From: a virus
Length of the DNA stretch: 64,000 nucleotides
Direction: 5' to 3' (one strand)
IMG/VR virus record: IMGVR_UViG_3300006736_003672
Coordinates: 1 to 64,000 of that record
Of this stretch, positions 33,076 through 55,600 are shown piece by piece. Both the position numbers and the translations under genes were made by a program. The notes under the pieces were generated by a model. The model saw only the letters and a list, made by a program, of their open reading frames with translations. It had not been told where the DNA came from and searched no databases. Every line of letters starts with the position of its first letter. The stretch's first letter is position 1.

Positions 33076-34176
33076 ATGTCCGAAGAAGAAATTGATCAAC
33101 AGCCAGCAACGGAAGACGACCTTGCAGATGATTTTGCAGATGATTTTGATTTTGTAGAACACTATGGAGAATCAGCTGAAGTAAAACACGAAGAGCAGCT
33201 GCCTGATAATACTGCAAAATCATCTTTAAACTGTGCTTTTGTTGGTGTCGGCGGAGGTGGAGGTAAAATGGCAAAAGCCTTTTTAGATTTAGGATTTAAT
33301 AAAACTATTTTAGTTAACACGACTGAAAAGGACCAACCGGCCGGAATTGATTCTAAGCATTTGGTGCTTATTCCTGATGCAGACGGCGTTGCGAAAGATG
33401 TTTCTTATGGTAAAACTGTTTTTGAAAATAATGGAGCAGTTGTTGAAGATGCATTAAGAACTAAGCTTGGTAAAGTTGATTGGTTATTTGTGTTGGCTGG
33501 CGGTGGCGGAGGAACTGGAAGCGCATGCGCTTCCATGCATGAAGTTTTCGAAAGATACTTGGCTTCTGTTCAAGCGGAAGGGAGAGTTGTATATGTTGTT
33601 TCCTGGCCATCTGCACAAGAATTGCTAAATCCAACAATTGCGAAAAACGCTCTATCTTTGTTAAATGATGTATGTTCTTATCCTCACATTGTTTTGGACA
33701 ACGAAAGGCAAGTCGAATTGCTTCGCGGAAAAGTTGGAATGTTAAACATGTTCCCAGTCGCAAATAAAACTTTTGCTAAATTATTTAATCAAGTTTTGAA
33801 GTTGTCTTCTGAAAATTCTCCCATTCAGACTTTTGATTCGAAAGATCTTGAAAGGACTTTAAAACAAAATGGAAGAATTTTTATTGGTTCTACAATTGTT
33901 AGAGATCCAAAGGATCCAAATCTTGGAGCACAAATTTTTCAAAATTGCCTTCAACGATCCCCGTGTGCTCCCCCAAAGGGAAAGCCGAAAACAGGTACAA
34001 TGTTGTTAATTATGACCGAAGAGCTTGCATCAGATCCTGAGATTAGTAAACACTTGGATGCTGCAATGTCTTATGTTGGAGGAAGAACAGAGACGTTGTT
34101 CACAGGAGTATACATTAAAAGGAATGTTCCTGGCCTGGTAACAATATTGACCATGACAGGAATGGAAGAAGAGTGA
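33076..34176 (+). CDS. Tubulin/FtsZ-family GTPase (PhuZ/TubZ-like)
   Basis: FVGVGGGGGK, VNT, DGVAKD, signature GGGGGTGS, VLDNE and T7-like FDSKDL. Confidence 0.9.
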   Translation: MSEEEIDQQPATEDDLADDFADDFDFVEHYGESAEVKHEEQLPDNTAKSSLNCAFVGVGGGGGKMAKAFLDLGFNKTILVNTTEKDQPAGIDSKHLVLIPDADGVAKDVSYGKTVFENNGAVVEDALRTKLGKVDWLFVLAGGGGGTGSACASMHEVFERYLASVQAEGRVVYVVSWPSAQELLNPTIAKNALSLLNDVCSYPHIVLDNERQVELLRGKVGMLNMFPVANKTFAKLFNQVLKLSSENSPIQTFDSKDLERTLKQNGRIFIGSTIVRDPKDPNLGAQIFQNCLQRSPCAPPKGKPKTGTMLLIMTEELASDPEISKHLDAAMSYVGGRTETLFTGVYIKRNVPGLVTILTMTGMEEE

Positions 34177-34458: not shown

Positions 34459-35952
34459 GTGGCAGAGCGAATACAGCATGGAATAAATGGACCCGAGCCA
34501 CCATTATTTTCTAGAAACGTACACCCAACTACAACGCCTTTTAAATATATTCGTGACTTTGCCACTAGTCATAACAAAACAAGTATTTTAAAAGAGGCCG
34601 GCCCTTATATAGCGGAAGTTATAAGAGTATATGATAAATATACTTTAGGACAATCGACTGGAAAAGTTCCTTTGGATTACTGGAATCATTTTGAAGGCGA
34701 CGAATCGGGAGAGATAGTTATTATAAGGGCGAGAATACCAGAAATCGATACTTTTGGCATCCCGCAGAAGCTTCCAGTAAATGATGAGGATTTTGTAAAT
34801 TTAAGCTCAGAAGACAAACATCGTGTTGAACGCTACCCAAAATGCATTGCAAAGTGGTTAAACATGCCTAGACCAGCCGTTGGGCAGGCAGTTTGGGTAG
34901 ATTTCAGAGATCCAAAAAATAGATCAGGTAGGATGTATTTGGGAATTGTCAACAGTACTCAACCTAATGCTTATTCTAGTGGTGCAGGATCTAAAGATGG
35001 TTTCGACAACCCTTTAACTCCAAATTATTTCCCGCCGACAGAGCCTCCAAAGCCATATACTGGGCCAGTTGTTTTTGCAGATGGATACAATTGGGCCTTC
35101 CCGGAAGGCGAAGTGGCGTTAACAATTGGGCCTGGGGAAATTGCAACTTTGGCCATGGTCGGCGGCAACCCGCGTATAAGAGCCTTTATGAGAATGATTA
35201 CGCTTCATGAAGGCGGGGCGCGCCACCAAGGTCCGGACAATGGCGTGATAGCTAGTCCATATCAATTGCTTGTAGGGGGGAAGGTAACTACCGACCCACA
35301 AAAACGCGCAGGCCGCATTACAAAGGGTCATATAGTATCTTCTGGAAATTTTTTTGGAGGAGGTTATGTGGGCCATCCGGGCATTGTGGTCAAGTGGAAC
35401 CCGGATGCATATGGGTCTTCTGCTTGTGGCAGATTTCAATTCTTGGGAAGTACCTGGAAGAACTGGGCCGCCCGCACTCGAAAACGCCCGGGCCACCCTG
35501 ATCGATCAATGGAAGAAGCTCGAGCCGATTTTTCCCCGGCGAATCAGGATTATGCGACTTATCAATTTATGATGAAACACAAAGGCGCCCCCGAGTTCGG
35601 TGGAGTTAAGGCAAGTCTACTTGAATTATTAGTTAAAATGGGCGACACTCCTGTTGAAGCTACTCCCGACAATAAAAAGATATGGAAATTAATTATGAAA
35701 ACTGCCGGCCCAGGAGCTGGGCCAAAAGGGCCTAGGCATCACACTCCGGGCCCTGGAAAAGGAATTGGTGGAACATGGGCTAGTTTACCTTACGCGTGCT
35801 ATAAGAATCAAAGTTGTATAAAACTGCTCGCCGACGGCGGCCTTCTCCGCGACCAAAAAAGATATAACGAAGGGATAGAATTATATTCAGCTTTGTTAGA
35901 CGAAGAAAATATCATAGCGGAATATAACGCGGATCTGACACCTGTGGGATAA
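34459..35952 (+). CDS. gp5-like OB-fold hub protein fused to a lambda-R-type lytic transglycosylase
   Basis: N-terminal IRARIPE...P.VGQAVWVDF.D...MYLG (gp5/VgrG OB-like). C-terminal RIRAFMRMITLHEG, SSACGRFQFLGSTW, DFSPANQD and TWASLP. Confidence 0.8.
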   Translation: MAERIQHGINGPEPPLFSRNVHPTTTPFKYIRDFATSHNKTSILKEAGPYIAEVIRVYDKYTLGQSTGKVPLDYWNHFEGDESGEIVIIRARIPEIDTFGIPQKLPVNDEDFVNLSSEDKHRVERYPKCIAKWLNMPRPAVGQAVWVDFRDPKNRSGRMYLGIVNSTQPNAYSSGAGSKDGFDNPLTPNYFPPTEPPKPYTGPVVFADGYNWAFPEGEVALTIGPGEIATLAMVGGNPRIRAFMRMITLHEGGARHQGPDNGVIASPYQLLVGGKVTTDPQKRAGRITKGHIVSSGNFFGGGYVGHPGIVVKWNPDAYGSSACGRFQFLGSTWKNWAARTRKRPGHPDRSMEEARADFSPANQDYATYQFMMKHKGAPEFGGVKASLLELLVKMGDTPVEATPDNKKIWKLIMKTAGPGAGPKGPRHHTPGPGKGIGGTWASLPYACYKNQSCIKLLADGGLLRDQKRYNEGIELYSALLDEENIIAEYNADLTPVG

Positions 35953-36464
35953 GGAGTAAAATTTAAATGGCTAACGAACGAATACAACATGGAATAAATG
36001 GGCCCGAACCACCATTATTTTCTAGAAATGTACACTCAGCCACAACGCCCTTTAAGTATGTAAGAGACGCCGCCACTAGTCATAACAAAACAAGTATTTT
36101 AAAAGAGGCCGGCCCTTATATAGCGGAAGTTATAAGGGTATTCGAGACTTACACTTTAGGACAATCGACTGGAAAAGTTCCTTTGGACTATTGGAACCAC
36201 TTTGAAGGTGAGGAATCAGGCGATATAGTTGTTATGAGAGTCCGCATACCAGAAATTGACACTTTTGGAATACCACAGCAGCTTCCAGTAAATGATGAGG
36301 ATTTTGCAAATTTAAGCCCGGGAGACAAGCACCTTGTTGAGCGTTATCCAAAGTGCATTGCAAAGTGGTTAAACATGCCTCGCCCTGCAGTTGGGCAGGC
36401 AGTTTGGGTAGATTTCAGAGATCCGAAAAATAGATCAGGTAGGATGTATTTGGGAATTGTTAAT
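34459..36464 (+). repeat. ~495 bp diverged direct repeat (34459-34953 and 35967-36464) encoding the shared N-terminal module
   Basis: Long identical stretches such as GCCACTAGTCATAACAAAACAAGTATTTTAAAAGAGGCCGGCCCTTATATAGCGGAAGTTATAAG and AAAAATAGATCAGGTAGGATGTATTTGGGAATTGT. Confidence 0.95.
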
Positions 36465-37820
36465 ACTGCGCAAGCATCACTTGATTCTGGTGACTCCGGC
36501 TCCGGCGATGGTGACTCATCCACAAAAGATGATTTTGATCAAGGGACCGATGCTGACAAGGCTCTCGCCACCCAGCGCAGCAGAAATGCGCTCAAGAGGG
36601 GCATCAAAATTCCTGAAGCTGATAAAGGCGATATTGCATTATTGGTCGGTGATAGCCAGATGAAGGGGAGGCTTGGAGAGGCTCTGGCCAAGCGACTTAC
36701 AACTTTAGGATGGCAACTACTCCCAAAGGGGGCCGTCAAGGGGCAAACCCAAAGAGCTGCAACAGCTCGTACAGGCTCGTCCATTAAACCATGGCTTTTA
36801 CAAGTTTGTGCGATACAAGACGGTAAGCCAGAATGGGGAAAAGCTGGTTTTAAATGTATAAATAAATATTTGACAAGAACACAACCACCAAAGGTTGTAT
36901 ATATATGTCTATCAGGAAATGGTGGCACTGGAAAACAAGCCGTAAAATTTATTAATATGATTAGAGATGCCACAGGAGAGGCAACACAGATTGTGTGGTT
37001 TTTAGCGCCAAAATCACATGATGCCCCCGGTGGCAAACAAAGGGCCTACATGAACCAAGGTACCGCTAATGGCACGTGCCAGGCGCCTAAAACAGGAAGT
37101 AATTGCGGCCGCCTCGCGAGAAATTTAGAGATCCAGATGGCTATAGCAGAATTAGACAAAGTAATGATTATTGATCCGCAAATAGAACTGCCAGATTACA
37201 AACCAGATGAGACAAATGCCCACGACGGGCTTCATCTAGGTAAAAAAGCTGCAGAAAGGCTTATTAATAATATATCTAGAGGGTTACTTACAGCTGAACA
37301 AAGACAAAAACAGCTCCAGGAAAACCTCCTCGTCGGCGGCTGTTTCGTTGCAGGAACTAAGATTGCTGTCGTCGATGAACTTGGCAACAAACATGAAAAG
37401 AACATTCAAGATGTGCATGTTGGAGATACTGTGTTGAGTTATAACTTTGCACTTGGTGCGCTTGAGAATAAGCGTGTCACGTCAACTTTCAATCCAATAC
37501 ACAATGATCTTACAAAGTTCACGTTCGACAATAACACGTCGACAATTCACACTTATGATCACCCATATTATGTAATAAATAAGGGCTGGGCATCATTAAG
37601 TCCGGATTTTACAAAACATCGCTATGCTGAACATTCGTCAGAATTATTGGATACAAAACTTATTAATGTCGGTGATCAATGTTTGCTTGATGATGGAATA
37701 ACTTATACAACACTAATTGATGTACAGGTTGTTCATGGCAATAATGTTATGACGTATAATATAAGAGTTGAGGACAATAACAATTATTTTGCTGACGGAA
37801 TTCTGGTACACAATAAGTAA
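35967..37820 (+). CDS. gp5-like OB-fold hub protein fused to an SGNH hydrolase and a C-terminal Hint domain
   Basis: Same N-terminal ~165 aa as the upstream gene. SGNH blocks LVGDSQ, RTGSS, LSGNG and DGLHL. Hint motifs CFVAGT, TYDHP and YNIRV..NNYFADGILVHNK-stop. Confidence 0.8.
   Translation: MANERIQHGINGPEPPLFSRNVHSATTPFKYVRDAATSHNKTSILKEAGPYIAEVIRVFETYTLGQSTGKVPLDYWNHFEGEESGDIVVMRVRIPEIDTFGIPQQLPVNDEDFANLSPGDKHLVERYPKCIAKWLNMPRPAVGQAVWVDFRDPKNRSGRMYLGIVNTAQASLDSGDSGSGDGDSSTKDDFDQGTDADKALATQRSRNALKRGIKIPEADKGDIALLVGDSQMKGRLGEALAKRLTTLGWQLLPKGAVKGQTQRAATARTGSSIKPWLLQVCAIQDGKPEWGKAGFKCINKYLTRTQPPKVVYICLSGNGGTGKQAVKFINMIRDATGEATQIVWFLAPKSHDAPGGKQRAYMNQGTANGTCQAPKTGSNCGRLARNLEIQMAIAELDKVMIIDPQIELPDYKPDETNAHDGLHLGKKAAERLINNISRGLLTAEQRQKQLQENLLVGGCFVAGTKIAVVDELGNKHEKNIQDVHVGDTVLSYNFALGALENKRVTSTFNPIHNDLTKFTFDNNTSTIHTYDHPYYVINKGWASLSPDFTKHRYAEHSSELLDTKLINVGDQCLLDDGITYTTLIDVQVVHGNNVMTYNIRVEDNNNYFADGILVHNK
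37341..37820 (+). other. Hint (intein-like, BIL/PT-HINT-type) autoprocessing domain at the protein C-terminus
   Basis: Cys1 in GG|CFVAGT, block B TxxH (TYDH) and terminal HN followed by Lys-stop; no endonuclease and no C-extein. Confidence 0.88.
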
Positions 37821-37911: not shown

Positions 37912-39018
37912 ATGTCGAATAAAAAATTAATAGAATATCCTAAATGTATTAGCGCGGAGAGAGCTAAAAAATTAAGCACACTTTCAGATAAAGATAGAGA
38001 AAGAGCGCTCTCTGGAGTGGGACAAGGGATAAAGTTTGAGTGCGCACCAGCATATGAAGCTGGGGACTGTGAAACCTGGTTTAGAAGTAAAGGAGGAAAT
38101 GCTTTTCTAATCTTGGGAAGAGATCGTCCAAATGGTTTACATAGTGGATACGGTGGGTCTGATGGGGAAAAGGGTGATCATCCAGCAGCATCAGCTGTAA
38201 GGCTTACAGCAGGAATGGGAGGACGTTCACCGAAAGAAATAGTTAACGTGCACGGTGTCGAACTTGTTAATACTTTAGATCCTAACAATCAAGAAGATGC
38301 TGCAACAATTTATTTAAGCCAAAAAACAGATATTGATGATAAGCAACGAGGCTTTAATTTAGCTAAAGGCACAATTGGTAGAGTAGAAGCGCGCTCCGCT
38401 GCCGCCATAAAAGCAGATTCTGTAAGAATTATAAGTAGAGATGGTGGCATAAAATTAATTGCCGGCGGCTCCACGAAGAATTCGCAAGGAGGAAAAATAG
38501 ACACTTATCCTGATATTAATTTTATTGCGGGAAACGACGACTCTGGTCGACTCTTGCAACCATTAGTTAAGGGCGATAATATGAAAAAAGCTATTATCAA
38601 ACTTTACAAATATTTAGATGAGATTCTTATAACCGTTAATAGTATTTTAATTGAACAGGATCTTTTAAATAAAATTTTATCGACTCACCAACATCTGTTA
38701 CCCCCAATCACCTTGCCGCCGATGAAGATTCAAGGCTACGGCGTTGGCGGAAACTCCGGCGGCATCGTCAAATCAACGCTCCTTGCTAGTACAGTTCCGC
38801 CGTCTCCCTTCCCCATGGGGTTGGGAACTCCTTCCCCGGGGTGGACACTGTTTAGCCCGGAGGTGATGACTCAGGCGAACGTATGTTCTATGAATCAAAT
38901 GAGCATTAGTATGGACAAGATTGTGAAATTAAAAGCTAATATGCTTGGATCAAAAGCCAATGCAATTTACCCAACTTCACCTAATTATATAATGAGCAAA
39001 AATGTTTTTACAACTTAA
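37912..39018 (+). CDS. Putative baseplate central spike (gp5 C-terminal-like beta-helix)
   Basis: Beta-strand repeats (AIKADSVRIISRDGGIKLIAG), then a helical stretch and HxH (STHQH) as in metal-binding spike tips; adjacent to the OB-fold genes. Confidence 0.55.
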   Translation: MSNKKLIEYPKCISAERAKKLSTLSDKDRERALSGVGQGIKFECAPAYEAGDCETWFRSKGGNAFLILGRDRPNGLHSGYGGSDGEKGDHPAASAVRLTAGMGGRSPKEIVNVHGVELVNTLDPNNQEDAATIYLSQKTDIDDKQRGFNLAKGTIGRVEARSAAAIKADSVRIISRDGGIKLIAGGSTKNSQGGKIDTYPDINFIAGNDDSGRLLQPLVKGDNMKKAIIKLYKYLDEILITVNSILIEQDLLNKILSTHQHLLPPITLPPMKIQGYGVGGNSGGIVKSTLLASTVPPSPFPMGLGTPSPGWTLFSPEVMTQANVCSMNQMSISMDKIVKLKANMLGSKANAIYPTSPNYIMSKNVFTT

Positions 39019-39037: not shown

Positions 39038-42000
39038 ATGCCAAAAGTACTAATAGAAAATCTTGAGCTTGAGTCACTAATAGAGCCGCCTTTTACTAGA
39101 GATGAAGACACGTATGAGGTCGTCGTGTCAATTTGGGGAGTTCCCGGCACTGGCGACTTGGACACCCAATACAAAATAGGGTCGAGTGCTGATAATTGGG
39201 TGTTCGAGACTTCGGACGCAATAGGAGATTGCACCGCCACGGCAAATCAGCAACAGCTCATCGAATTCGCAGACGAGCACACCGATTGTGTTGTCGATAA
39301 ACTCATGCTCCATGTACAAAATCGTGGAGTGTATGTTATATTAAAAAAGCTTCTTGGTACCGGTATGGACAAGTTTGCCGCCGAAACCCCGGATGACGAA
39401 AACTACTCAATGGATGAGAACGGTTATCAAGTGCACGAAGGCTTCGGTACGAAAACCCGCGATCTTATAGCTATGAAAAATTACATGACTCACCTGCTAG
39501 AGGTAGTCGAAAACGATATCATAATTGGCACGTTTGTGGGCTATGAAGGCGATCCTGATGCCGATCCTCCCATCCCTCCGGTAGAAATTTGGAGATCCCC
39601 TCGTCCTTCAGATCCTCATCCACGCCGAGTAGTCGTCGGGCTTAGTATTGGCAAGGAAAATATAGAGAAGTTAAGAGGTCTAAATCCCGCCGAAGCAGTA
39701 GGGGAGATCTCAGAATTCGATGAAAAAGCCGGCGCCCCGGTGGTGACTCGCTCGGAGCCTAAATTTCGTCAAACGTTTCAGAATGTTTTTGAATTTAGAG
39801 ACTTAATCGACAAAGTGTCTAAAGGATTAAAAAACTATCATGGCAAGTTATCAGATTCATATTTTGCTTATCATGTTCCTCCGCCCGGCTTACCTCAGGG
39901 TCTTTTGGGTCCGATTTATGACTCGGACGATGTAGAGGATTGGCCTGAGCTTGATTTTAAACAACAGGCTGCATATTTGAAGGAGGCTGGTGACAAGATT
40001 ATAGATTTTTTGAAAAGTTCTGGACATAATATGGGCGCACCTTTTGAAATTGGCTTTCGTAATTATCATAAAATAGATGAGGAAGGACTGACTACAGCTG
40101 AGTTAAGAGACGAAGTAAAAACAGGAACGGTTCCCGGGATAACGTATGTTGGATACCCGATAGAGTACGAAAAAGTGCGTTTATATACTTTATATGTCTT
40201 GAAAACTCCAAAGCCGCCCCCGGCCAGCGCGCCGGCACTTGATTATGGTTTAAATAAACCCCCGGTCCCATGGCCAACTTTATATCCCGACACAAGTCCA
40301 GACGGTGATCCTAGAATATTGTATGGGGATCCTGCTGCCTATGAAGTTGATTCACCATTTGACAAAGAACCGTTTACGTTTGGTACTGTTAGATGGTTTT
40401 TGGCCAACTTGAGAGATATTGGTTATAAACACATCGGCGGCAAACCAACTCCAGAAGAACTCAAGGCGCAAACAGAAGCAGCTGCAGTTGTTGCAACGTC
40501 AGAAGCAATGGAAAATCCTTGTGCCATGTCTGCTCCTGCTATGGCTAGTAAAGAATCCATGCCGGTCGACGACTTTATTGAATTGTATGTTTACCCAAAC
40601 CCCGAGACAATTTTTAAAACCAGTTCTATTTTGGATTTAGCTAAAAAATTAGCTGGATGGCACTCTGGAGAAGAGTCTGCTGAAAATAAAGCACTTGAAC
40701 GTAAGTTAACCAAAGAAGACGTATTACAATCTGTAGTTAATAATAGCCATGTTAACGCTTCCGATTATGTTGGAGACTTAGTATATAAAAACTTACCAGT
40801 ATCTCCGAATAAAATTCGATCAATTCATGATGCATATGCATATATTTTAAGAAGACTTGATATCCCAACTATAATAGTAAAACTATTAGAATGTCTTGGG
40901 TTGAGAGTAAGTTTAGACGACTTAATTGAGTGGATTTGTGATGACATTATTAAAGCTGTTGACGAAAAAACCGATGGAGGTATTACAAAACTTGTTGAAT
41001 TTTTGGAGAGTGGAGAATTTCAGATCCCGGGCGAATTCCTGGCACAGGATCCTCCCATTCAAGTGACCGACATTATAGGAGTTATACATGCCCACTCGGA
41101 CATTGATACTGGTTCTGCAGCGGTAGATCAGATGCTCAACACTTGGGATCGCAACCAAAAATTATTTATTTGCGCTGCAATTGCTGCCGGCCCATTCGCC
41201 GCAGTAGCCGGCTTGATTTGGCTAATTAACTATCTTCTTACTAGAGACGGGTCGTTGGACAAGCAGCCGGGAAAGAAGAAGTGTGATATTGAATTTTCAT
41301 TTCCAGATGAGTGGCCAATCTTAGATGCTCTTTGGGATTGGATATTAAGAGAAGCTTTAAAAAGACTTGAAGAAGAAGCTATGAGATTACTAGAGGAAGA
41401 AATTATCAAGCCTCTAAATCTGCTATTACAACAACTGTTAGACTTTTGCGATAAAGAAGAAGAAAGTTTTGGAGAAATTTCGTCCGAAGATTTAGACCCA
41501 GATCTTGCTTCAAAAGCTGCTCCGCTATTTGTAGGGCCAAAATCAAACAAATTTTTAAAAAAGTTGTTGTCTGCTTTAACTCCTAGTGAACTATGCGGGC
41601 TTCTAAGAGGGACCCTTTTATTTGAGGCCCCTGAAACCAAAAAAATTACAAGTTTTATTTACGAGTTTGCTTTAGACGAATACAATGGAGCACCTGCAGG
41701 AACAGTAGAACATGGAGGAAAACCCGGGCCTCTTGGTAACGGAAAAAATATACTTCAATTTTTTAAAAATCTTGGCAAGAAAGTAAATATGAGCGTGTGC
41801 GATGAACGAGAATTGCCAGAAAAGCCTATATCAGACTTTTGTGATGATCTTGGTGTAGATTATGAAAGTAATTTAAGAACCGCTTTAACTAACCAGGGAC
41901 TCTCTGATGAACAAATTGAAGGTCAAGTTATAGCAAAGCGAAACGCCAAGAAAGAAATAGTTAGCTCCGCTATACAAAATCTACTTAGAGGTAGCAATTT

Positions 42001-45000
42001 AACTGAAAAAGTAAAGGAAGACACAAAAAAAACAGTACAAAAGATTATAGTTGAAGCACTGCAAGGGACGAGCGCCGGCGCTATTAAGCACGTCATTAAT
42101 AGTGCGGCAATTCCGATGACAGCTGATATGGCAAACTTTTCTTTAGCTTTTTCAAATACTTCATTTGTAAAAAGACTTATTGCGGGAGTTGAGCTTGTAA
42201 AGACAGAGCCAATTTTTGATTGGCTTCCCACTGCGGAACTCAGTCAGTTCCATCGTTTTAGATTTAATATTTTTGATGGTAAATATTTAGAAAAAAAAGC
42301 TTTACAGGCCGAATTCGGATCGTCTGCTCCTGATGTTAATATGTGTGATGAGATCACTCGCCATATTGCTCTTATGGAAGATCTCAAACAGGAGATGGCA
42401 ATGGATCTTCATGAAGCCCGATGGAAATATTGGGATGGAGATCTTTATGAGGACCTTGAAACAGGCCCGGGCCCTGCTTTTATCACTCTCGCCGACGCAT
42501 CGATCGAGAGTTTCGCTGAATACAATAAAGCCCGAGCTGAAGAGGTTGGAGGAGACCCGACAGGAAAAGATTTGTCTGCATATGATTTATATCAATTGGG
42601 CTATGATCAATTCTCCGGGATGAGCAGATTCCACGCTAAGGAAGTACAAAGAAAAGTAGTGGAAGCATCTTGGTTTAATTTGCCACATAAAAATCTTATT
42701 AAAAGATACGAGAGGTTAACACCTTTAGAGTTTGATGACTTAGCAGTAATTGCATTTAGGTATTATAGTAGACATGTGCATGATTACACCAACACCTCGG
42801 CCGGCGATGAAGCTGAACTCAAGTTATTCTCCGAGGCGAATCATTATGGATCATTTTATTACGATCCGTTGACAGAAGAGGGTGGTCATTATGCCTGGGG
42901 CCCTCTTCTCAGTTCGGTTAATTTTAGAATGGGCTCCTCCCGGCCTTGGGCCGAATCTCCGCCAGGTCCTGATCAATATCCTTCAAAAAAACCTGATTGG
43001 GTGGATGTAGGATTTTACGATTTGGTGAGTAGGCTAGATCGTGCTTCTGGGACTGATCAAAACAATTATAAACTTTTTACGAACGAACCTCGTGTCACGG
43101 CAGTCATTCACCCCCACACTAAGGAGGTGAGAACTCATCTCGTTGCTACAGAAGACTTTCTTCAACGTGCTGGAAATTGGACACCACGGAATCCAATTTG
43201 GTCAGGTACTGATGTTAAAACAGCGCTAGTTCAGCTTCTTTTATTTGTTTGGGATTTCGGCGCTGACGAGTTGTCAGATTTTCCATATGAAGCCGGCGTC
43301 GGAGCATCTATTAATACCCATCAAGGAACCGAAGATGGTTGGAAAGCAAATTTTTGGGGAGGACACTTATTAAGAGCTTTGAAGTATTATCAACATGGCT
43401 TGAACACAGTTCCCTCTTTTGCTATAGATTTTGACAAATCCAGCTTTGCGACGGTGGAGAAATCCGTCTACACCCACCCAGTAGGCGAGCCTTACCCCAC
43501 GTATGAGAAAGTCGTCGAGGTCGAGAAGAGCCTGAAAGAAGCAGATTTAGTTGATTCCGGGGATACAATAACTTTAATAGAGGCTGTCTGGGGACAGGGC
43601 GAGTGCGGCGAGGTCTACCGTTACTATGATTATGCAGGATGGACCCCGGCCTGCCCATCCCAAGATCCTGAAACGTTTGAAGTGATTCCGTCTAAAACAA
43701 TGGTTGTGAACAAAGAAGCGTGGCTAGCGGGAAATGCTGAGTCTAAACTATTGAGAGCAGATCCCATTGATGATTCTGCAGAATTAATGGTAATCGATCC
43801 CGAGACCGGCCTTCGTGCACCATTTATTCCCGCTATGAAACCAACTCCTTTAAGTCTATTTTGCGCCCCGGGCTTAAAGAGAAGACCTCCGCCTCCGGAT
43901 CCAGAAAAAACTTGGGAAGCTGTTTATACATTAGTTCCTCCTGGCAAAGGCAAAGACAAAGAAGGAAAATTAAAATTATTGGATGAAATCTCGAGGTGTA
44001 TAACAGATGACTACACAATTTCAGTTAAGGAGCCCGGGTACGGCGTCGCCATCTTCGGCACGGCGCCTGCAGTGATATTAGACTATCGTAGTAAAGAAAT
44101 ATTAAAATTATGGGATGACATAGGCGATGACACTACAAACAATGAGCCTGGTTTTTCTATGAATAAAACAATCGATGTACTTGCCGCTTCTATGGGTACT
44201 GGACTTGGATGGAATACATACGATGTAGATGAACCAATAGCTCCACAATTTCTCGAAAAAATGATTCTGAGACACATTGATGATAAGTTTCCACATTTTG
44301 ATGATCAAATCATCCAAGATATGGTCGCCACCGGCGTCGGGGACTTTAATTCAGACTTCTCGATACACTATGCTCTTACTAAGGTGCTCAGAACCCACAA
44401 ACAAGGAAGACTAAACCTATATGGAACTATTTTTCGGGACTGTATAAGAAACATGGCTAACTTATCATTGAAATATGGAGTCGCTCAAAAAGCATCCGGA
44501 GACTATGATAGTTTGCAAGAAAAAATAATTGCTGCTGTTGGAGTACTGATGAATGATCTTGCTAGATCTAATGCTCTGACTGATTTGACTGATTTAGCAA
44601 CCGATGCTGCAAACAAACACACAGACGCAATGGAAAATGCTGATTTGGCGGATATAAATTCTATTCCTTCAATTGGAAAAACATTAATATCTTATCCACC
44701 AAATCCCCCTTTTCAGCTGGATCATAGTTACGATCCGCCGATGAAGGTATTTGAAAAGGTTGATTGGAAGAAGGGGCCTGCTTTATTTAGGCTATTAATT
44801 AGAGTAGTAATTATGGAAAAAGTGTTTAAGACGCTCATGACATCTTCCACTTATTCAACTTCTGGTATTTTTTCTAGCATTCCAATGAAAATGATAATTG
44901 CGAGTTCCATCCGATCCCAGCTCTCGACCAACATTCGGGATAAAATTAAAATATTGGCATCGGATCTGGGAATTATTGGGGAAGGCGCGTCATTTTCTTC

Positions 45001-48000
45001 ATGTGTCTTGCCCATAATAGAAGAAGAAATTGAAGCAACATCTGGCAAAGTCAGCGACCTGTTGGGTAACACAATACCGCAATTGACAGAGTTCTTAAAA
45101 GACAATGTCTATGATCTGGCTACGTCTCATCCAGAGTGTAATATATATTCTACGTGGACGGATATGGATCGTTACGTTCCCACGCAAACCGAAGCTGCCC
45201 TCGTCGCGCATCACGGCGAGCAGGATCCCGAAGGCTACGGAGGAGGACTCCAACTCCCGGACGAGTCTGCAGATCCCACGGCAGGTGAGAAGTATTGGGA
45301 CGCGGTTATCGCTTTGAATGAAAACAAATTAGGCCTTAACGAGATTGTCGAACACCAAGAAGGTCCCAAGATAGCCAGCGATAATATATTTAGTTTGACA
45401 AATAATTTTCATTCAACATTAAGATTTATTGATGAAGATGGAATCCAAAAATACTCTGGCTTTATTTTAGAAAAATATATAAAAGTTAAGTTCAAAAATA
45501 ATTTAATAAAAAAAATAGAAGATAAAGATCAAGGAGAACAGTTTTTAGAGGCATGGCAAGCTCTTCCAATTGAATGGCGAGGCAGCGCGCAAGATAAAAT
45601 GAAGCCAGATGGATTCAAATATGCAACTTGTTTAAGCCCCGGAGAGTTTACATCTGCGATTGGTGACTTTTTTACTTATTTTGGCAACATGACTCCTGAA
45701 GGTTGGGGTCAATCAGTGTTTGATTGGGCTCAACTTTTTGATCCTTATCAATTTAGTGAAAAGCTACAAGAACTCTCTGACAAAGTGTATGAGGAAGGAA
45801 AGCAAAACCCAGGAGACAAACACGGGCACGACAGCGTTCTGAATATTGATCGAAGCGAGAGAGATTTATGGTCTAACGGGCCCGCCGGCCAGGCTATCTT
45901 CAGTGCAAATCCCCTGACCGCAGGCGCTAGCGCCCAATACAGTGATCATAATGTGGTTTCTAGATCTGCCGAAGTGCAGAGACATATTGCTCTCATGGAA
46001 AGGATTCTTGCATACCAGCTGAAAAATAACAGCGGCGGCCCCTCCGAAGGGTATGTTCATCCAGGTTCTGATCCCAGTTCGTACTACGAAGGCGATGAGG
46101 ATAGTGCTAGACCTTTTAATTCTCCAGCCGGCTCGAGGATCCCATTCGGATCCACCGGTGTTAATGCCGGCTGGAACGACAACACTGGATTGGGAATAGA
46201 AGGTACCGCTGAGAACATACAATCTTTATGGCATAGCCTTACTAATCAAGATAAACGTGATTTAGAGACAATTGCTTTTAGATTTTATTCTAGATATTAT
46301 TTTGGAGACTTGAGATCATTTTACTTCGATCCTCATGATTCTGTATATCCCAAACACGCCGGCGGCTCTAACGTTGGACTTAAAGATTTTGTGGGAAGAA
46401 AAGGGTTTCTTGATTCGACTATGGATTTTCGTACTGGTCTCCGACGACCAGGAATGATGTTCATGAACGCCGTTAACCAGAAAGAGTGCACCGAGGAACC
46501 ACCTTTCTGGAAAAAAGCCGCCGTCGCCATCGGTGGTGCCCTCCTCTCCGGCCTTGTTTCTCTCATTCCCGGCGGGCTTATTATTGATCTAGTTGGATCA
46601 TTCGCGGGACAGGGATTCAAGGCCGCCGGAGAATACTACCTCCACAAAGACGACAAATGCTGGTATGTCTCGGGCAGGTACGTTGTACCTCAACCAAACG
46701 ATCCAACGTTGTGTCTTCATATGCCAACGTCGCTTATGGATATGATAAAAATGATACAAATGCAAACTTATGAAACTGACAGCGGTTGGTGGAGCGAAAA
46801 TGTTGGTAGTGCCGCCGCCGTCCATTACACCAATGGCGCAGATGGACCTGGCACATCGCAAGATGATCATTTAGACGCAAAAATAAGTTATAGGACACCC
46901 CTTATACAAAGAGGCGCCAGAACGTCACAGCCGTCATATAGGATTCCCGATATCGTGGAGGAACCTGGCCACGCGGGCTACGGCGCGCGACTGGGCATGA
47001 GTTTGCAAGACAGAGACCCTGATGAAAATGAGATCTTGGGCGCCATGGCCAAGCTTCTTCTTTTTCCATATGAAATTGGAGATTTTCAAACAAATTCATA
47101 CAGCGATGAAGGATTAGATGAGTTTTGTGGTGATGATGACCAATGTGACGAAACAGTTATCAGAAGGTATTCAATCCCCGGCTCTCAGCAATGGGGAGGT
47201 GCACTCGAAGACGACTTTGACGTTGATTTTTCCTCTGGTGGTCTTTATACATCTGCAAAGATAGGAGAAGAGTGGACCGCGATATTTGGCGGGCACTTAT
47301 ACTGGGCCTTGCAATATTACAAAAAGGGATTATGGGAAACACACGCTGAATTTATAAGTGGCGAGACTGGAACAGTTATAACGTCACCCTCACCTTTGGG
47401 TATTTTTACTAAAGACTCTGAAGGAACCAGCAATGTTATAAAAATTAAGGGATCAATACCTGAAGATTTGAAATCTATAAGTGATATGGATTTGACAGGA
47501 GATGATGGATTTGCTGATGTGTCTTATGGTTTACGTTTGTCGTATCTTGTTCCTCCTAATGTTGCGTCCGAAGATCCAAGAGATTATCCACTTTCACCGG
47601 GAAAAGACCAGCTACAGACCAGCGATGAGCGGTCCGCGACATTCTGGCCAGCCGTCGAAAAAGCGACCACCCCGATGTTTTCGAGTAAACCATTTTTCCA
47701 TGACACGGGAGAATACCGCACCAAATCCACGGAGTTGATATCTCACGTAATGGACGGGTGGGATTCGATGAAACGTGAAAAATCGATTTTTATAAGCGAA
47801 GTTCCTGAGGCTGTCCCATCAATTAATTTATCCGATCAGGACGAACGCCCACAATCAGCTGGCTTCGACCCCTTCGGCAACCTCCTCGTCGAGCACTCGC
47901 GGTCGAAATACAATATTGGCAAACCAATTGTTATATTACCAATAATGGAATATGAAGATCCTGTAGGTCCCGGGAAAAAATGGAATGATATCATATATAC

Positions 48001-48331
48001 TGAGGAAATATTCACTAGCCTTTACGAAGGATTAAAGGTAATGCCTGATTTTAAACTTTTCTTTGAGTATGTTATTCCACTTAAAAGAGTCGTGATGATG
48101 TTGGCGATCCGTGACATGTTAAATTTTGAATCATCTCTTTCCGAGCTTCCATATAAGACGGCGTTATTTGAGGCTAGTAGGGGAGATATATTTAATTTGG
48201 TTAGATATGCCTTTGACGCAAGTAAAGATCCAAGAATTGTCTCGCCCCCCGCCCAATCCATTATCGCGCTTCAAGGATTCAAAGACCAGTTTGATAGCCT
48301 GAACCTCATCGATACATCCGGCGATAGCTAG
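39038..48331 (+). CDS. Giant 3097-aa virion-associated protein with an internal duplication and hydrophobic segments
   Basis: Uninterrupted ORF between the spike and gp25 genes; no recognisable catalytic motif. Confidence 0.75.
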   Translation: MPKVLIENLELESLIEPPFTRDEDTYEVVVSIWGVPGTGDLDTQYKIGSSADNWVFETSDAIGDCTATANQQQLIEFADEHTDCVVDKLMLHVQNRGVYVILKKLLGTGMDKFAAETPDDENYSMDENGYQVHEGFGTKTRDLIAMKNYMTHLLEVVENDIIIGTFVGYEGDPDADPPIPPVEIWRSPRPSDPHPRRVVVGLSIGKENIEKLRGLNPAEAVGEISEFDEKAGAPVVTRSEPKFRQTFQNVFEFRDLIDKVSKGLKNYHGKLSDSYFAYHVPPPGLPQGLLGPIYDSDDVEDWPELDFKQQAAYLKEAGDKIIDFLKSSGHNMGAPFEIGFRNYHKIDEEGLTTAELRDEVKTGTVPGITYVGYPIEYEKVRLYTLYVLKTPKPPPASAPALDYGLNKPPVPWPTLYPDTSPDGDPRILYGDPAAYEVDSPFDKEPFTFGTVRWFLANLRDIGYKHIGGKPTPEELKAQTEAAAVVATSEAMENPCAMSAPAMASKESMPVDDFIELYVYPNPETIFKTSSILDLAKKLAGWHSGEESAENKALERKLTKEDVLQSVVNNSHVNASDYVGDLVYKNLPVSPNKIRSIHDAYAYILRRLDIPTIIVKLLECLGLRVSLDDLIEWICDDIIKAVDEKTDGGITKLVEFLESGEFQIPGEFLAQDPPIQVTDIIGVIHAHSDIDTGSAAVDQMLNTWDRNQKLFICAAIAAGPFAAVAGLIWLINYLLTRDGSLDKQPGKKKCDIEFSFPDEWPILDALWDWILREALKRLEEEAMRLLEEEIIKPLNLLLQQLLDFCDKEEESFGEISSEDLDPDLASKAAPLFVGPKSNKFLKKLLSALTPSELCGLLRGTLLFEAPETKKITSFIYEFALDEYNGAPAGTVEHGGKPGPLGNGKNILQFFKNLGKKVNMSVCDERELPEKPISDFCDDLGVDYESNLRTALTNQGLSDEQIEGQVIAKRNAKKEIVSSAIQNLLRGSNLTEKVKEDTKKTVQKIIVEALQGTSAGAIKHVINSAAIPMTADMANFSLAFSNTSFVKRLIAGVELVKTEPIFDWLPTAELSQFHRFRFNIFDGKYLEKKALQAEFGSSAPDVNMCDEITRHIALMEDLKQEMAMDLHEARWKYWDGDLYEDLETGPGPAFITLADASIESFAEYNKARAEEVGGDPTGKDLSAYDLYQLGYDQFSGMSRFHAKEVQRKVVEASWFNLPHKNLIKRYERLTPLEFDDLAVIAFRYYSRHVHDYTNTSAGDEAELKLFSEANHYGSFYYDPLTEEGGHYAWGPLLSSVNFRMGSSRPWAESPPGPDQYPSKKPDWVDVGFYDLVSRLDRASGTDQNNYKLFTNEPRVTAVIHPHTKEVRTHLVATEDFLQRAGNWTPRNPIWSGTDVKTALVQLLLFVWDFGADELSDFPYEAGVGASINTHQGTEDGWKANFWGGHLLRALKYYQHGLNTVPSFAIDFDKSSFATVEKSVYTHPVGEPYPTYEKVVEVEKSLKEADLVDSGDTITLIEAVWGQGECGEVYRYYDYAGWTPACPSQDPETFEVIPSKTMVVNKEAWLAGNAESKLLRADPIDDSAELMVIDPETGLRAPFIPAMKPTPLSLFCAPGLKRRPPPPDPEKTWEAVYTLVPPGKGKDKEGKLKLLDEISRCITDDYTISVKEPGYGVAIFGTAPAVILDYRSKEILKLWDDIGDDTTNNEPGFSMNKTIDVLAASMGTGLGWNTYDVDEPIAPQFLEKMILRHIDDKFPHFDDQIIQDMVATGVGDFNSDFSIHYALTKVLRTHKQGRLNLYGTIFRDCIRNMANLSLKYGVAQKASGDYDSLQEKIIAAVGVLMNDLARSNALTDLTDLATDAANKHTDAMENADLADINSIPSIGKTLISYPPNPPFQLDHSYDPPMKVFEKVDWKKGPALFRLLIRVVIMEKVFKTLMTSSTYSTSGIFSSIPMKMIIASSIRSQLSTNIRDKIKILASDLGIIGEGASFSSCVLPIIEEEIEATSGKVSDLLGNTIPQLTEFLKDNVYDLATSHPECNIYSTWTDMDRYVPTQTEAALVAHHGEQDPEGYGGGLQLPDESADPTAGEKYWDAVIALNENKLGLNEIVEHQEGPKIASDNIFSLTNNFHSTLRFIDEDGIQKYSGFILEKYIKVKFKNNLIKKIEDKDQGEQFLEAWQALPIEWRGSAQDKMKPDGFKYATCLSPGEFTSAIGDFFTYFGNMTPEGWGQSVFDWAQLFDPYQFSEKLQELSDKVYEEGKQNPGDKHGHDSVLNIDRSERDLWSNGPAGQAIFSANPLTAGASAQYSDHNVVSRSAEVQRHIALMERILAYQLKNNSGGPSEGYVHPGSDPSSYYEGDEDSARPFNSPAGSRIPFGSTGVNAGWNDNTGLGIEGTAENIQSLWHSLTNQDKRDLETIAFRFYSRYYFGDLRSFYFDPHDSVYPKHAGGSNVGLKDFVGRKGFLDSTMDFRTGLRRPGMMFMNAVNQKECTEEPPFWKKAAVAIGGALLSGLVSLIPGGLIIDLVGSFAGQGFKAAGEYYLHKDDKCWYVSGRYVVPQPNDPTLCLHMPTSLMDMIKMIQMQTYETDSGWWSENVGSAAAVHYTNGADGPGTSQDDHLDAKISYRTPLIQRGARTSQPSYRIPDIVEEPGHAGYGARLGMSLQDRDPDENEILGAMAKLLLFPYEIGDFQTNSYSDEGLDEFCGDDDQCDETVIRRYSIPGSQQWGGALEDDFDVDFSSGGLYTSAKIGEEWTAIFGGHLYWALQYYKKGLWETHAEFISGETGTVITSPSPLGIFTKDSEGTSNVIKIKGSIPEDLKSISDMDLTGDDGFADVSYGLRLSYLVPPNVASEDPRDYPLSPGKDQLQTSDERSATFWPAVEKATTPMFSSKPFFHDTGEYRTKSTELISHVMDGWDSMKREKSIFISEVPEAVPSINLSDQDERPQSAGFDPFGNLLVEHSRSKYNIGKPIVILPIMEYEDPVGPGKKWNDIIYTEEIFTSLYEGLKVMPDFKLFFEYVIPLKRVVMMLAIRDMLNFESSLSELPYKTALFEASRGDIFNLVRYAFDASKDPRIVSPPAQSIIALQGFKDQFDSLNLIDTSGDS

Positions 48332-52681: not shown

Positions 52682-55600
52682 ATGAGTACCAAAGACTATT
52701 TCAATAAAGACCAATCTATTATTAGGGTCGCCGCATCTGCTTCCATGGGCGATCTTGGAAATGAAGTAGAATCGGCTGAATTTATACAAGAGAAAATAAA
52801 AGATACAGATCGTTTTGTACCTTTTGTAGATTTTTCGAAACCAGAAAATTTTGTTAGATTTGGATCCGCTGAAGAATACTATGCTGAATCTATTAAAAGA
52901 GTATATAGAACATATCCATATGACGGATCTTTAAAAGAAAAGACCCAGTGGCACAATAGTTCTTCCTTTTTGGATCGATATATTTTTGATAAGGTTTATC
53001 CTCGTTCAACAGGGTACGCTATTTTTTCTTCCAATGGTTGGGGGTCTGTTTCAGCGACCAAAGGCGCCATGGCGACCGAAAATGAATATGGTCTTTCAGC
53101 AACGCCAGAGTATATTTTAATCAAGGGGGGCCCGCATAAAGATCCTAGCTATTCGTCAATGTCAAAACTGTTCCCATCGGCTGATGGGAAATCTAATATT
53201 TATGACTATGATAAAAATAGAGAATCAAATTTAAAATTTGGAGGCAATGATGGAAATACAGTTGAATTCTGGTTGTGGAAACATGATTTTGATCCATCTA
53301 AGACAAAAAAAGAAGTTATTTTCGATGCAACTACGACAGATTATGTGTCTTCTAGTACATTCTATGGTCGCTTAAGAATTGAATTATCTGCTACAACAAG
53401 ACAAGATGAATCTCCGTTTTACGTAACATATTTATCTGGCAATGCCGGCGATGTTGACTCTCGTTCAACTGCCGCTTACAATGGCGGCGGGTTTTATAGC
53501 GCTTCAATAGGAGATAATTTAACTACCGCTTCTATTGCTGATAGAAGCTGGCATCATTATGCATTTACGTTTAGCACTTCGGGCAGCGGCACCGGCCCGG
53601 GCGGAACTCGCGTCAGATTATATGTAGATGGAGACCTGAACACAGAAACAATTGTTGGAACTAGTGCCAGTTATGTAAGTGGGAATATTAATGCAGCTAT
53701 TGGTGCGTTAATCACCGAGCAGTCTGGTGCTGAAAATATAGATTGGTCTGATGCCACAGGCTATGGTAAAATGTCTGCTTCAGTAGATGAATTTAGGTTC
53801 TGGAAGGTGGAAAGAACTCCAAAAGAAATCGGGCGCAATTGGTTTACTCAAGTTTATGGTGGGACAAATACGGACGACGCAAATACTCAACTAGGAGTAT
53901 ATTATAAATTTAATGAGGGGGTCTCCGCGACATCCAGTTATGATTCGAAAGTCTTGGATTACTCCGGAAGAATCTCTTCAGGATCTTGGGAAGGATATCT
54001 ATCGACTTCTCGTAATACAGGATCGGCAATATTATCTGCCAGTGCCGCAGTATATGAATTTGAGGATCCCATTCTTTATTCATTCCACACCAACGTCACT
54101 AGCGCTTTAGATAGTTACTCAAAATTAGGAAAGAACTTTGATTATCAAAATAATGCTTCGATTTATAATAGTATCCCAGAATGGATAATATCAGAAGATA
54201 GATATGTTGGCTCTAATTTATTAAAATTGACACAAATTATGTCAAGCTATTTTGACACACTGGCCTATCAAATTAAAGCACTACCATCAATAAAGAATAT
54301 ATCTTATACACCATTTACATCTTCTTTTATTAGTACGGGTTCGGGCCCCACAGGCAGTGGTGAGTACAAGCCTCTTCCTTTTGCCAATAGACTTCTAGAA
54401 TCCGCCGGATTAACTACGCCAGAAATATTTCTTGATGCTGATGTAATTTCTAAATTTACCTCGAGAGATGAAAAAATTCTCTTTAAAGATAATCTTTATG
54501 ATACAAAAAATTTAATTTACCAAAATATATATAATAATTTAATCTACATTTATAAGTCAAAAGGGACCGAAAAGGCTTTTAGAAACGCCATTAGGTGTTT
54601 TGGCATAGATGATGAATTAATTAAGATAAATGTATACGCCAATAATATAACTTACGAACTTAAAGATAGTTACAATTATACAGTCCAAAAAAAGAATTTT
54701 GTAGACTTTCATATTCCAGATCACAACACCGCTGTAATATACCAAGCGACTAGTAGCAACTCAAATACAGTGTCTTTTATTTCCGGCAGCGAGGAATTTT
54801 ACAGCGGTTCGGCAAGAACACTAGAGGCTGAAATTATATTCCCTCGCAGAGAAACTTATGAAAAACCAGGACAATATATAATAGCTCCCGGGCTCACTTC
54901 TTCTTTGTTTGGCACCAAGGGCGCCTATTCTATCAATACTGAATTACAATCGGATCTAAATGATCATAGATATACAACATGGCAGCAACAAGATCATGGT
55001 GACTTAAGAGTTATGGCTGTAAAAGATACGCATGATATTTTATCGACAAACGCATACTTTAAGTTAACATCCAGCACAATGGCCATCAATTTAACTTCCG
55101 CTGTCTTTTATGATGTTTATGAAGGCGAAAAGTGGAATTTTGCAGTTAGAATTCGACCTTCGACATACCCAATGGCCAATAAGGTTTCTGGTTCTCGCGA
55201 TGCTTATGCTCATGGTTCCGGAACTGTTGAGTTTTGCGGGGTAAATGCTTCAAACAACGCCATAAGAAATGAATTTTATTTGACTGCCTCTTCTCCTTTT
55301 CCTGGTTCCGATATTGGCGCGTCTCGTGTCAACCACTGGATAGGGTCACCTAAAAGAGTATACGCTGGTGCCTTGAGAGCAAACTTTACAGGAACATTGC
55401 AGGTTTATTCAGATGTTAAAGTATCATCTGTAAGATATTGGTTTGATTATTTGCCAGATGAGGCTATCAAAGCCCATGCTAAGGATTCTGGCAACGCCGG
55501 CGTCGTTCACCCATATGATTATGCTTATTTATTTAATGCTCCTACTGCCAGCCTTTGTTATATTCCCAAGATTGAAACGTTGGCGCTTAATTGGGACTTC

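Follow-up and report, generated by a model that had tools for sequence, protein, structure and literature searches.

A type-A BIL-like Hint domain ending in His-Asn-Lys-stop on a probable SGNH esterase from a marine phage baseplate module

Residues 459-616 of a 617-amino acid protein from the contractile-tail baseplate module of an uncultured marine phage are a genuine Hint domain with an intact catalytic set. The open reading frame (35967..37820, plus strand) lies in a 64,000-nucleotide window, positions 1 to 64,000 of the 75.9 kb IMG/VR virus record IMGVR_UViG_3300006736_003672. Its product, to which P0001 in the protein collection is identical, consists of an N-terminal module shared with other proteins, an SGNH-type esterase domain, and the terminal Hint domain, followed by a single lysine and the stop codon. 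Hint domains are best known as inteins, which are selfish splicing elements, and as the lipidation machine of Hedgehog. The domain described here is of a known kind, a Hint domain like those of type-A BIL and BIL-ubiquitin-like (BUBL) proteins, in a variant and a setting that are undescribed: it is terminal, has a conserved lysine at the +1 position, and is attached to an SGNH esterase of a phage baseplate region. We favor, with modest confidence, the reading that it acts as an autoprocessing cap that sheds itself from the esterase. The parts of the domain are as follows.

37341..37814, plus strand: Hint domain, Cys459 to Asn616, 158 amino acids with no endonuclease insert (Pfam, phmmer, alignment, AlphaFold2, and Foldseek).
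37338..37343, plus strand: predicted scissile or activated bond Gly458-Cys459, the site of the N-S acyl shift (Cys1 in 219 of 219 family copies; similarity to protein P0013 starts here).
37815..37820, plus strand: Lys617 at the +1 position and TAA, forming the His-Asn-Lys-stop (HN-K-stop) ending (73% of the 262 copies that keep His-Asn have Lys at +1).

The catalytic residues of the domain are Cys459 (codon 37341-37343), block B, which has the form Thr529-x-x-His532 (37551-37553 and 37560-37562), and the terminal His615-Asn616 pair (37809-37814). Lys617 (37815-37817) and TAA (37818-37820) follow directly, and the sequence preceding Cys459 is Leu-Leu-Val-Gly-Gly, with Gly457-Gly458 encoded at 37335-37340. 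In an alignment of 57 sequences (A2), Cys459, Thr529, and His532 are invariant, while His615 and Asn616 are conserved in at least 90%. The Pfam PT-HINT model (PF07591) matches with 28.5 bits in the whole protein and 34.0 bits in the domain alone (cut-off 27.7), and the NCBIfam model intein_Cterm with 25.5 bits (cut-off 15.6). Pfam Intein_splicing gives 33.0 bits for the domain alone, slightly below its cut-off of 35.8. Taken with the phmmer, AlphaFold2, and Foldseek results below, these matches go well past what chance would give.

The AlphaFold2 model of residues 460-617 has predicted local distance difference test (pLDDT) values of 92-98. Foldseek found 64 matches to this model in the PDB at E ≤ 0.001, led by 6Y75 (E = 4.9e-13), and the 50 matches listed are all BIL domains, inteins, or Hedgehog autoprocessing domains. 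The closest is BIL2 of Tetrahymena BUBL1 (6Y75/6TMM; TM-score 0.89-0.90, root-mean-square deviation 2.1-2.3 Å, 26% identity), followed by the BIL domain of C. thermocellum (2LWY; TM-score 0.88) and then by mini-inteins, with the Hedgehog domain 1AT0 far lower (TM-score 0.67). The ranking by sequence is the same, BIL2 being the best PDB match (E = 1.1e-7). An earlier note, made from the DNA alone, had described a terminal Hint domain with Cys1, the block B His, and the His-Asn pair intact, and the DNA, Pfam, AlphaFold2, and Foldseek bear this out in every detail. Of the Hedgehog and BIL-type Hint domains that it cited, the BIL type, and not Hedgehog, is nearest by sequence and by fold.

The note had also held that canonical splicing is impossible. 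This is upheld, since the +1 residue is Lys617 and is followed by TAA with no C-extein. A canonical class 1 intein is ruled out on these grounds, and the domain is terminal instead of being inserted in a conserved host protein; true inteins recovered in the same searches have His-Asn followed by Cys and lie inside helicase-like genes. A split intein is likewise ruled out, as Cys1 through His-Asn is complete within one open reading frame. Membership in the Hedgehog type is excluded by the protein stopping one residue past the Hint domain and by the low TM-score to 1AT0, and a BUBL domain by the N-terminal flank, which folds as an SGNH hydrolase and not as a ubiquitin-like domain, and by the lack of a C-terminal flank.

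Type-A BIL domains were reportedly described by Amitai and colleagues in 2003 and Dassa and colleagues in 2004. The phage domain keeps His-Asn and lacks a +1 nucleophile, and the N-terminal flanks of its relatives are non-conserved and mutually unrelated. By the definition summarized in PMC4031507, PMC7664689, and PMC7765530 (Cys1, block B, and His-Asn present, no +1 nucleophile, occurrence on variable proteins), its sequence places it as a type-A BIL-like Hint domain. Its likeness to the C. thermocellum domain extends from the fold to the N-terminal Cys, the TxxH of block B, the C-terminal His-Asn, the lack of both a +1 nucleophile and an endonuclease, and the occurrence on variable, mostly extracellular, non-housekeeping proteins. 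It differs in that it ends the protein, comes from a clade in which Lys is conserved at +1, and is carried by a baseplate-region enzyme, and the sequence similarity to 2LWY is weak (E = 0.26).

BIL2 of the Tetrahymena thermophila BUBL1 locus (6TMM/6Y75) was reportedly described by Chiarini and colleagues in 2021. Besides being the top match by sequence and fold, BIL2 shares with the phage domain an insert after block B (HP-aromatic ... W-x-S-x-x-P) and the Gly-Gly before Cys1, which is also the sole likeness of the phage protein to a ubiquitin tail. BIL2, however, is situated between two ubiquitin-like domains, while the phage domain has an SGNH domain on its N-terminal side and nothing on its C-terminal side; the +1 residue in BUBL proteins is Ser or Ala instead of Lys, and the zinc ligands of BIL2 are not conserved. 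The Hedgehog Hog domain (1AT0) is similar in being a C-terminal Hint that activates an upstream Gly as a thioester resolvable by an external nucleophile, but it has a sterol-recognition region after the Hint domain and no conserved His-Asn. PT-HINT domains are defined by their position upstream of a released C-terminal toxin, whereas nothing follows the phage Hint, even though the model scores above its gathering threshold. A functional analogy, that of a self-removing C-terminal domain, may be drawn with the Peptidase_S74-type chaperone domains of phage tailspikes and fibers; those are unrelated in fold and chemistry (a Ser-Lys dyad with no thioester), and Pfam gave no Peptidase_S74-type match in the phage protein.

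The Pfam AXH model (PF08517, the Ataxin-1/HBP1 module) also matches these domains. It scores 41.2 bits on the Hint domain alone and covers the first two-thirds of the Hint domain in all 57 proteins of alignment A2, above the gathering score and with E values down to 2.4e-36; in the window the match spans 37341-37700 (residues 460-573). The AXH domains of HBP1 in the PDB (1V06 and 3QVE) match residues 522-573 with E near 0.01. Either a kinship between AXH and a portion of the Hint fold or the uptake of Hint sequences into the model accounts for this; whichever is the cause, the model is an annotation trap for phage proteins.

The domain belongs to a very large and essentially unstudied branch of Hint domains, of which this gene is a clear example. 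A phmmer search against 1.84 billion representatives (clusters at 50% identity) yielded at least 3,664 related clusters at E ≤ 1e-3, 709 of them at E ≤ 1e-10, with a best foreign match of 6.9e-76. Every Hint copy in the best 150 of the 3,664 proteins was cataloged, giving 219 full copies, and further sets comprised 68 viral-contig loci and 79 cellular-genome loci, the latter chiefly from Flavobacteriia, DPANN archaea, Candidate Phyla Radiation (CPR) bacteria, and Thermoplasmatales. In this branch, the Hint domain is either the last part of the protein or repeated in tandem, lacks a C-extein, and is followed by Lys right after the cleavage site; phage tail proteins commonly carry it, as do large surface proteins in several groups of bacteria and archaea. 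Many of the relatives are arrays of 2-8 Hint copies separated by 1-5 linker residues (HN-K-CF, HN-K-G-G-CF). Degenerate copies occur as well, with SD, HS, YD, or FE as C-terminal motifs or with the Cys1 segment missing.

All 219 full copies have Cys1 and 205 have His-Asn. At +1, 151 of them have Lys, 22 have Arg, 15 have Glu, and just 14 have Cys, Ser, or Thr; across the 262 copies with His-Asn intact, in which Lys dominates as given above, Arg accounts for 11%, Glu for 3%, and Cys, Ser, or Thr for about 6%. The stop codon comes one residue past Asn in 24 of 147 representative proteins, that residue being almost always Lys, and within 2-6 residues in 32 more; where tails follow the Lys, they are short, of low complexity, and mutually unrelated. 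Terminal copies, of which 16 are in viral contigs and 30 in cellular genomes, have Lys at +1 in 77-83%. In a tree of 275 copies, the Hint domain of the window falls inside a clade of 137-143 members with Lys (86%) or Glu (13%) at +1. The terminal Asn has been lost in nine copies from at least four separate clades, and these have Glu (eight copies) or Val (one) at +1 and never Lys. Going by this covariation of Lys with Asn, the +1 Lys seems to be linked to the C-terminal reaction and to be more than ornamental. Arg at +1 is common at tandem junctions (14 of 57 and 6 of 14) but occurs in only 1 of the 73 terminal copies from the representative and viral sets, while 5 of the 30 terminal copies in cellular genomes have it.

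These counts bear on three further points of the earlier note. The +1 Lys that it described is no oddity of this one gene: as judged from its distribution, the Lys-stop ending is a conserved signature of a large clade and not a truncation. The possibility that relatives possess a C-terminal extension lost here was checked with a negative outcome, for HN-K-stop recurs in dozens of unrelated proteins from clusters at most 50% identical to one another. The Gly-Gly before Cys1 is present in this protein as noted, but it was rejected as a family signature. At 122 first-copy junctions, 22% have Ser and 20% have Gly as the -1 residue, while Gly-Gly occupies positions -2 and -1 in 8%; at least two Gly occur among the last five residues before Cys1 in 45 of the 122.

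The Hint domain moves as a module. Its closest relative is in the 1,875-amino acid protein P0013; the two share 67% identity over the stretch between Cys1 and the last Lys, and the similarity is confined to this part, with none upstream. In related phage contigs, the Hint domain is attached to different proteins: in L057 it ends a protein encoded beside a homolog of the gp6-like wedge protein, and in L024 it is on a 1,068-amino acid protein near a homolog of a 3,624-amino acid protein of the window. A tblastn search with this protein and two viral-contig family members as queries detected no HN-K member in deposited phage genomes. The matches there were mostly to genes for helicases and terminases, where they presumably represent canonical inteins, and also to hypothetical proteins of Ruminococcus phages and to one terminal Hint domain with a different tail, in Phage NCTB.

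For the cap reading, which has our preference, the events would be as follows. The last 159 codons encode a Hint module that was joined as a unit, from Cys1 through Asn-Lys-stop, to the gene for the virion-associated esterase at its 3' end. We infer that the module is catalytically active. After folding, Cys459, aided by Thr529 and His532, would convert the Gly458-Cys459 peptide bond into a thioester, and cyclization at His615-Asn616 would break the Asn616-Lys617 bond. Given the lack of a C-extein and of Cys, Ser, or Thr at +1, water would be the main agent resolving the thioester, or else the amine of Lys617, whether released or adjacent. The domain of 158 residues would be shed, leaving a mature enzyme of residues 1-458 that ends in Leu-Val-Gly-Gly or in Gly-Gly-Lys. 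The domain would serve as a C-terminal cap that can be taken off one of the two paralogous cell-wall enzymes of the baseplate, which may be why the phage has kept it. According to PMC4031507 and PMC7664689, BIL domains that lack a +1 nucleophile yield mainly cleavage products, and type-A BIL domains keep His-Asn, such that the freed amine can attack the thioester and join the flanks; these and PMC7765530 attribute to type-A BIL domains an N-terminal thioester together with C-terminal Asn cyclization. The intact catalytic set, the BIL-like fold, the Lys clade, the recurrent terminal architecture, and the occurrence on other phage tail proteins are all consistent with such a cap. If the family only trims, it would constitute a type of removable cap, new as a class, on proteins of the virion and the extracellular space.

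Several observations fit a cap poorly. Simple trimming would leave the conserved Asn unexplained, as well as the Lys at +1, even where it is the last residue, and Hedgehog-type domains that cleave only N-terminally do not retain His-Asn. The N-terminal module also carries enzymes that function with no Hint domain, so that the need for a cap is not evident. No complete ortholog of the esterase, which would show where its natural C-terminus lies, was found in a region search, a search for shorter proteins, viral contigs, or metagenome contigs (the sole homolog, the partial TARA protein P0166, ends before block V). The closest solved homolog, BIL2, is moreover ligase-like and not a mere self-cleaver, as portrayed in PMC8616854. 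An alternative is that the Gly458 thioester is passed to an amine, which would covalently join the esterase through a peptide or isopeptide bond independently of ATP, as in BIL2. The amine might be that of the +1 Lys, of a Lys in a neighboring baseplate protein (the product of 37912-39018 or the paralog), or of a small molecule. The depositors of BIL2 report isopeptide bond formation with the Lys ε-amine and ATP-free conjugation of the ubiquitin-like domain upstream to a number of substrates (PMC8616854, section 2.4), which lends some plausibility to ligation here, given that BIL2 is both the nearest solved structure and the best PDB sequence match. The retention of Lys, overall and in terminal copies, its absence from all nine Asn-less copies, and the scarcity of Arg in terminal representative and viral copies relative to tandem junctions point in the same direction. 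However, Arg and Glu are tolerated at +1 with His-Asn intact, and Arg occurs in cellular terminal copies, so that Lys cannot be an obligatory nucleophile. The BIL2 zinc ligands His48 and His125 align with Pro510 and Asn598, BUBL proteins have Ser or Ala at +1 (P0098), a link to its own single Lys would give the protein just one more residue, for which a codon in the gene would suffice, and no partner protein was identified. We consider ligation unlikely for this protein. That the HN-K clade as a whole consists of ATP-independent, lysine-directed ligases, transferring the Gly458 carbonyl to the protein's own +1 Lys or to a Lys of a baseplate protein, is in our estimation a rather improbable proposal. 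If true, a covalent peptide or isopeptide link would be used in building or arming the tail tip, and the tandem Hint arrays and the terminal Hint domains on surface proteins of Flavobacteriia, DPANN, and CPR would be explained. A ligating family would be a natural, energy-free system of extracellular protein conjugation with clear uses in protein engineering.

The remaining explanations concern purpose, inactivity, and artifact. A mobile, self-removing Hint domain may have landed at the 3' end of the esterase gene and be excised harmlessly, with no benefit to the phage; the chemistry would be identical to that of the self-removal we favor, and the two are not mutually exclusive. The sporadic distribution of the domain, missing from the paralog and from the other proteins with the N-terminal module and carried by different tail proteins in related contigs, and its transfer as a module, as seen with P0013, fit such a passenger as well as they fit a selected cap. 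The G+C content of the Hint DNA is also somewhat lower than that of the remainder of the gene (0.34-0.42 versus 0.41-0.52), but this difference is inside the normal range of the window, and no homing endonuclease or other mobility gene accompanies the Hint domain. The tandem arrays and the preference for extracellular and virion proteins suggest instead a selected role, and we give a mere passenger little weight. Retention of a non-cleaving Hint domain in the virion, as a structural or binding module, appears quite improbable: degenerate and Cys1-less copies of the family do show that Hint folds persist without full chemistry, but every catalytic residue is intact here and the clade conserves them. 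A truncated intein, with its C-extein removed by a recent stop codon or by an error of assembly or sequencing, has nothing in its favor except the absent C-extein and is effectively refuted. HN-K-stop recurs across clusters, the ancestral +1 state of the clade is Lys and not Cys, Ser, or Thr, and, unlike the present domain, the true inteins from the same searches carry His-Asn-Cys within helicase-like genes. Downstream of the TAA the frame continues for just 13 codons before another TAA, and the next gene (37912-39018, 368 amino acids) has its own ATG at 37912.

The remainder of the protein and its paralog are organized as follows.

35967..36476, plus strand: N-terminal module, approximately residues 1-170 (alignment A1, with 60 invariant columns over residues 45-190).
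36549..37340, plus strand: SGNH/GDSL-type hydrolase domain and helical linker ending in Leu-Leu-Val-Gly-Gly (motifs, AlphaFold2, and Foldseek).
34459..35952, plus strand: paralog without a Hint domain, consisting of the N-terminal module and a lysozyme/transglycosylase-like domain (phrog_90 'endolysin', E = 7.9e-9).

The upstream domain is most likely an SGNH esterase resembling peptidoglycan O-acetyl enzymes, in keeping with its description as an esterase in the earlier note. No match to it came from PHROGs, from a PDB profile search, or from Pfam even at E ≤ 10, and with Pfam silent the label depends on motifs and a fold of moderate confidence. SGNH/GDSL hydrolases are defined by a flavodoxin-like alpha/beta fold and the blocks GDS(x), G, GxN, and DxxH. 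The corresponding motifs here are GDSQ at residues 228-231 (Ser230, 36654-36656), Gly317-Asn318, and Asp420-x-x-His423 (DGLH, 37224-37235). The AlphaFold2 model, built on an alignment of two sequences only, has a predicted TM-score of 0.69 and core pLDDT values of 70-84, and its top Foldseek matches in the PDB are all SGNH hydrolases (E from 6e-6 to 3e-5), led by the C. jejuni GDSL esterase Cj0610c (8GR2) and the peptidoglycan O-acetyltransferase PatB (7TLV/7TJB/8TLB). A match in the ESM Atlas (score 0.82) is a lead only.

The paralog is 71% identical to the Hint-bearing protein across the shared part and diverges beyond about 170 residues. In four other relatives of the N-terminal module, the esterase is replaced by Amidase_2, VanY, or unassigned domains, so the module, which thus accompanies other peptidoglycan hydrolases, is presumed to be a docking unit (to baseplate or hub) for interchangeable cell-wall enzymes. 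It has no match in Pfam (even at E ≤ 10), PHROGs, or the PDB profile search, its pLDDT values are 53-79, and the full-length model is poor outside the Hint domain. The Hint domain is absent from the paralog, as had been claimed, and from all four other relatives, and the 75.9 kb record holds a single Hint copy of this family. The pairing of an esterase with a transglycosylase-like paralog suggests, by inference, that de-O-acetylation of peptidoglycan might clear the way for the transglycosylase. With a common docking module and the Hint domain on one of two paralogs only, the locus is a convenient test case; it contributes a clean paralog contrast rather than new mechanistic evidence for a family whose chemistry may be unusual.

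Wedge proteins of the baseplate, gp25-like and gp6-like, are encoded downstream according to PHROGs, which identifies the region as a contractile-tail baseplate module. The 368-amino acid product of the next gene has no match in Pfam (even at E ≤ 10), PHROGs, or the PDB profile search. It shares Tyr-Pro-Lys-Cys-Ile (residues 9-13, 37936-37950) with the N-terminal module (residues 127-131, 36342-36359) in a pairwise match of 8 of 13 residues (E = 0.024); this may be a shared docking peptide or chance. Directly upstream of both hub-type enzyme genes is a gene (33076-34176) for a tubulin/FtsZ-like GTPase, whose product matches Pfam Tubulin with 30.5 bits (below the cut-off of 33) and phrog_17961. 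The module also contains two giant open reading frames, 39038-48331 (3,097 amino acids), with no PHROG match, and 52682-63556 (3,624 amino acids), for whose C-terminus the related contig L024 encodes a homolog.

Terminal Hint domains were also seen in other architectures. Phage NCTB (LT598654.1, 258 kb) encodes a 'large intein domain protein' (SBV38301.1, L092:1-3462) whose terminal Hint domain comes after six Gly and has a tail of 7 residues, the first of which (+1) is Ala; the annotation of the gene that follows names an aggregation-factor-like protein. In one recurrent phage protein family (L026, L028, L030, L034, L041, L059, L067, and L073), an unassigned N-terminal part of ~470 amino acids ending in His-Asn-Ala-Pro precedes one to three intact Hint copies and HN-K-stop, and in a second viral-contig family (L029, L031, L032, L035, and L036) the first Hint copy lacks the Cys1 segment. 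A protein of Flavobacterium sp. LMO8 (L095:1555-3459) has an RHS repeat-associated core (TIGR03696, E = 2e-15), then ~220 residues, and a terminal Hint domain ending in HN-K-N-stop, which places the Hint domain after the presumed toxin region, whereas PT-HINT normally comes before it.

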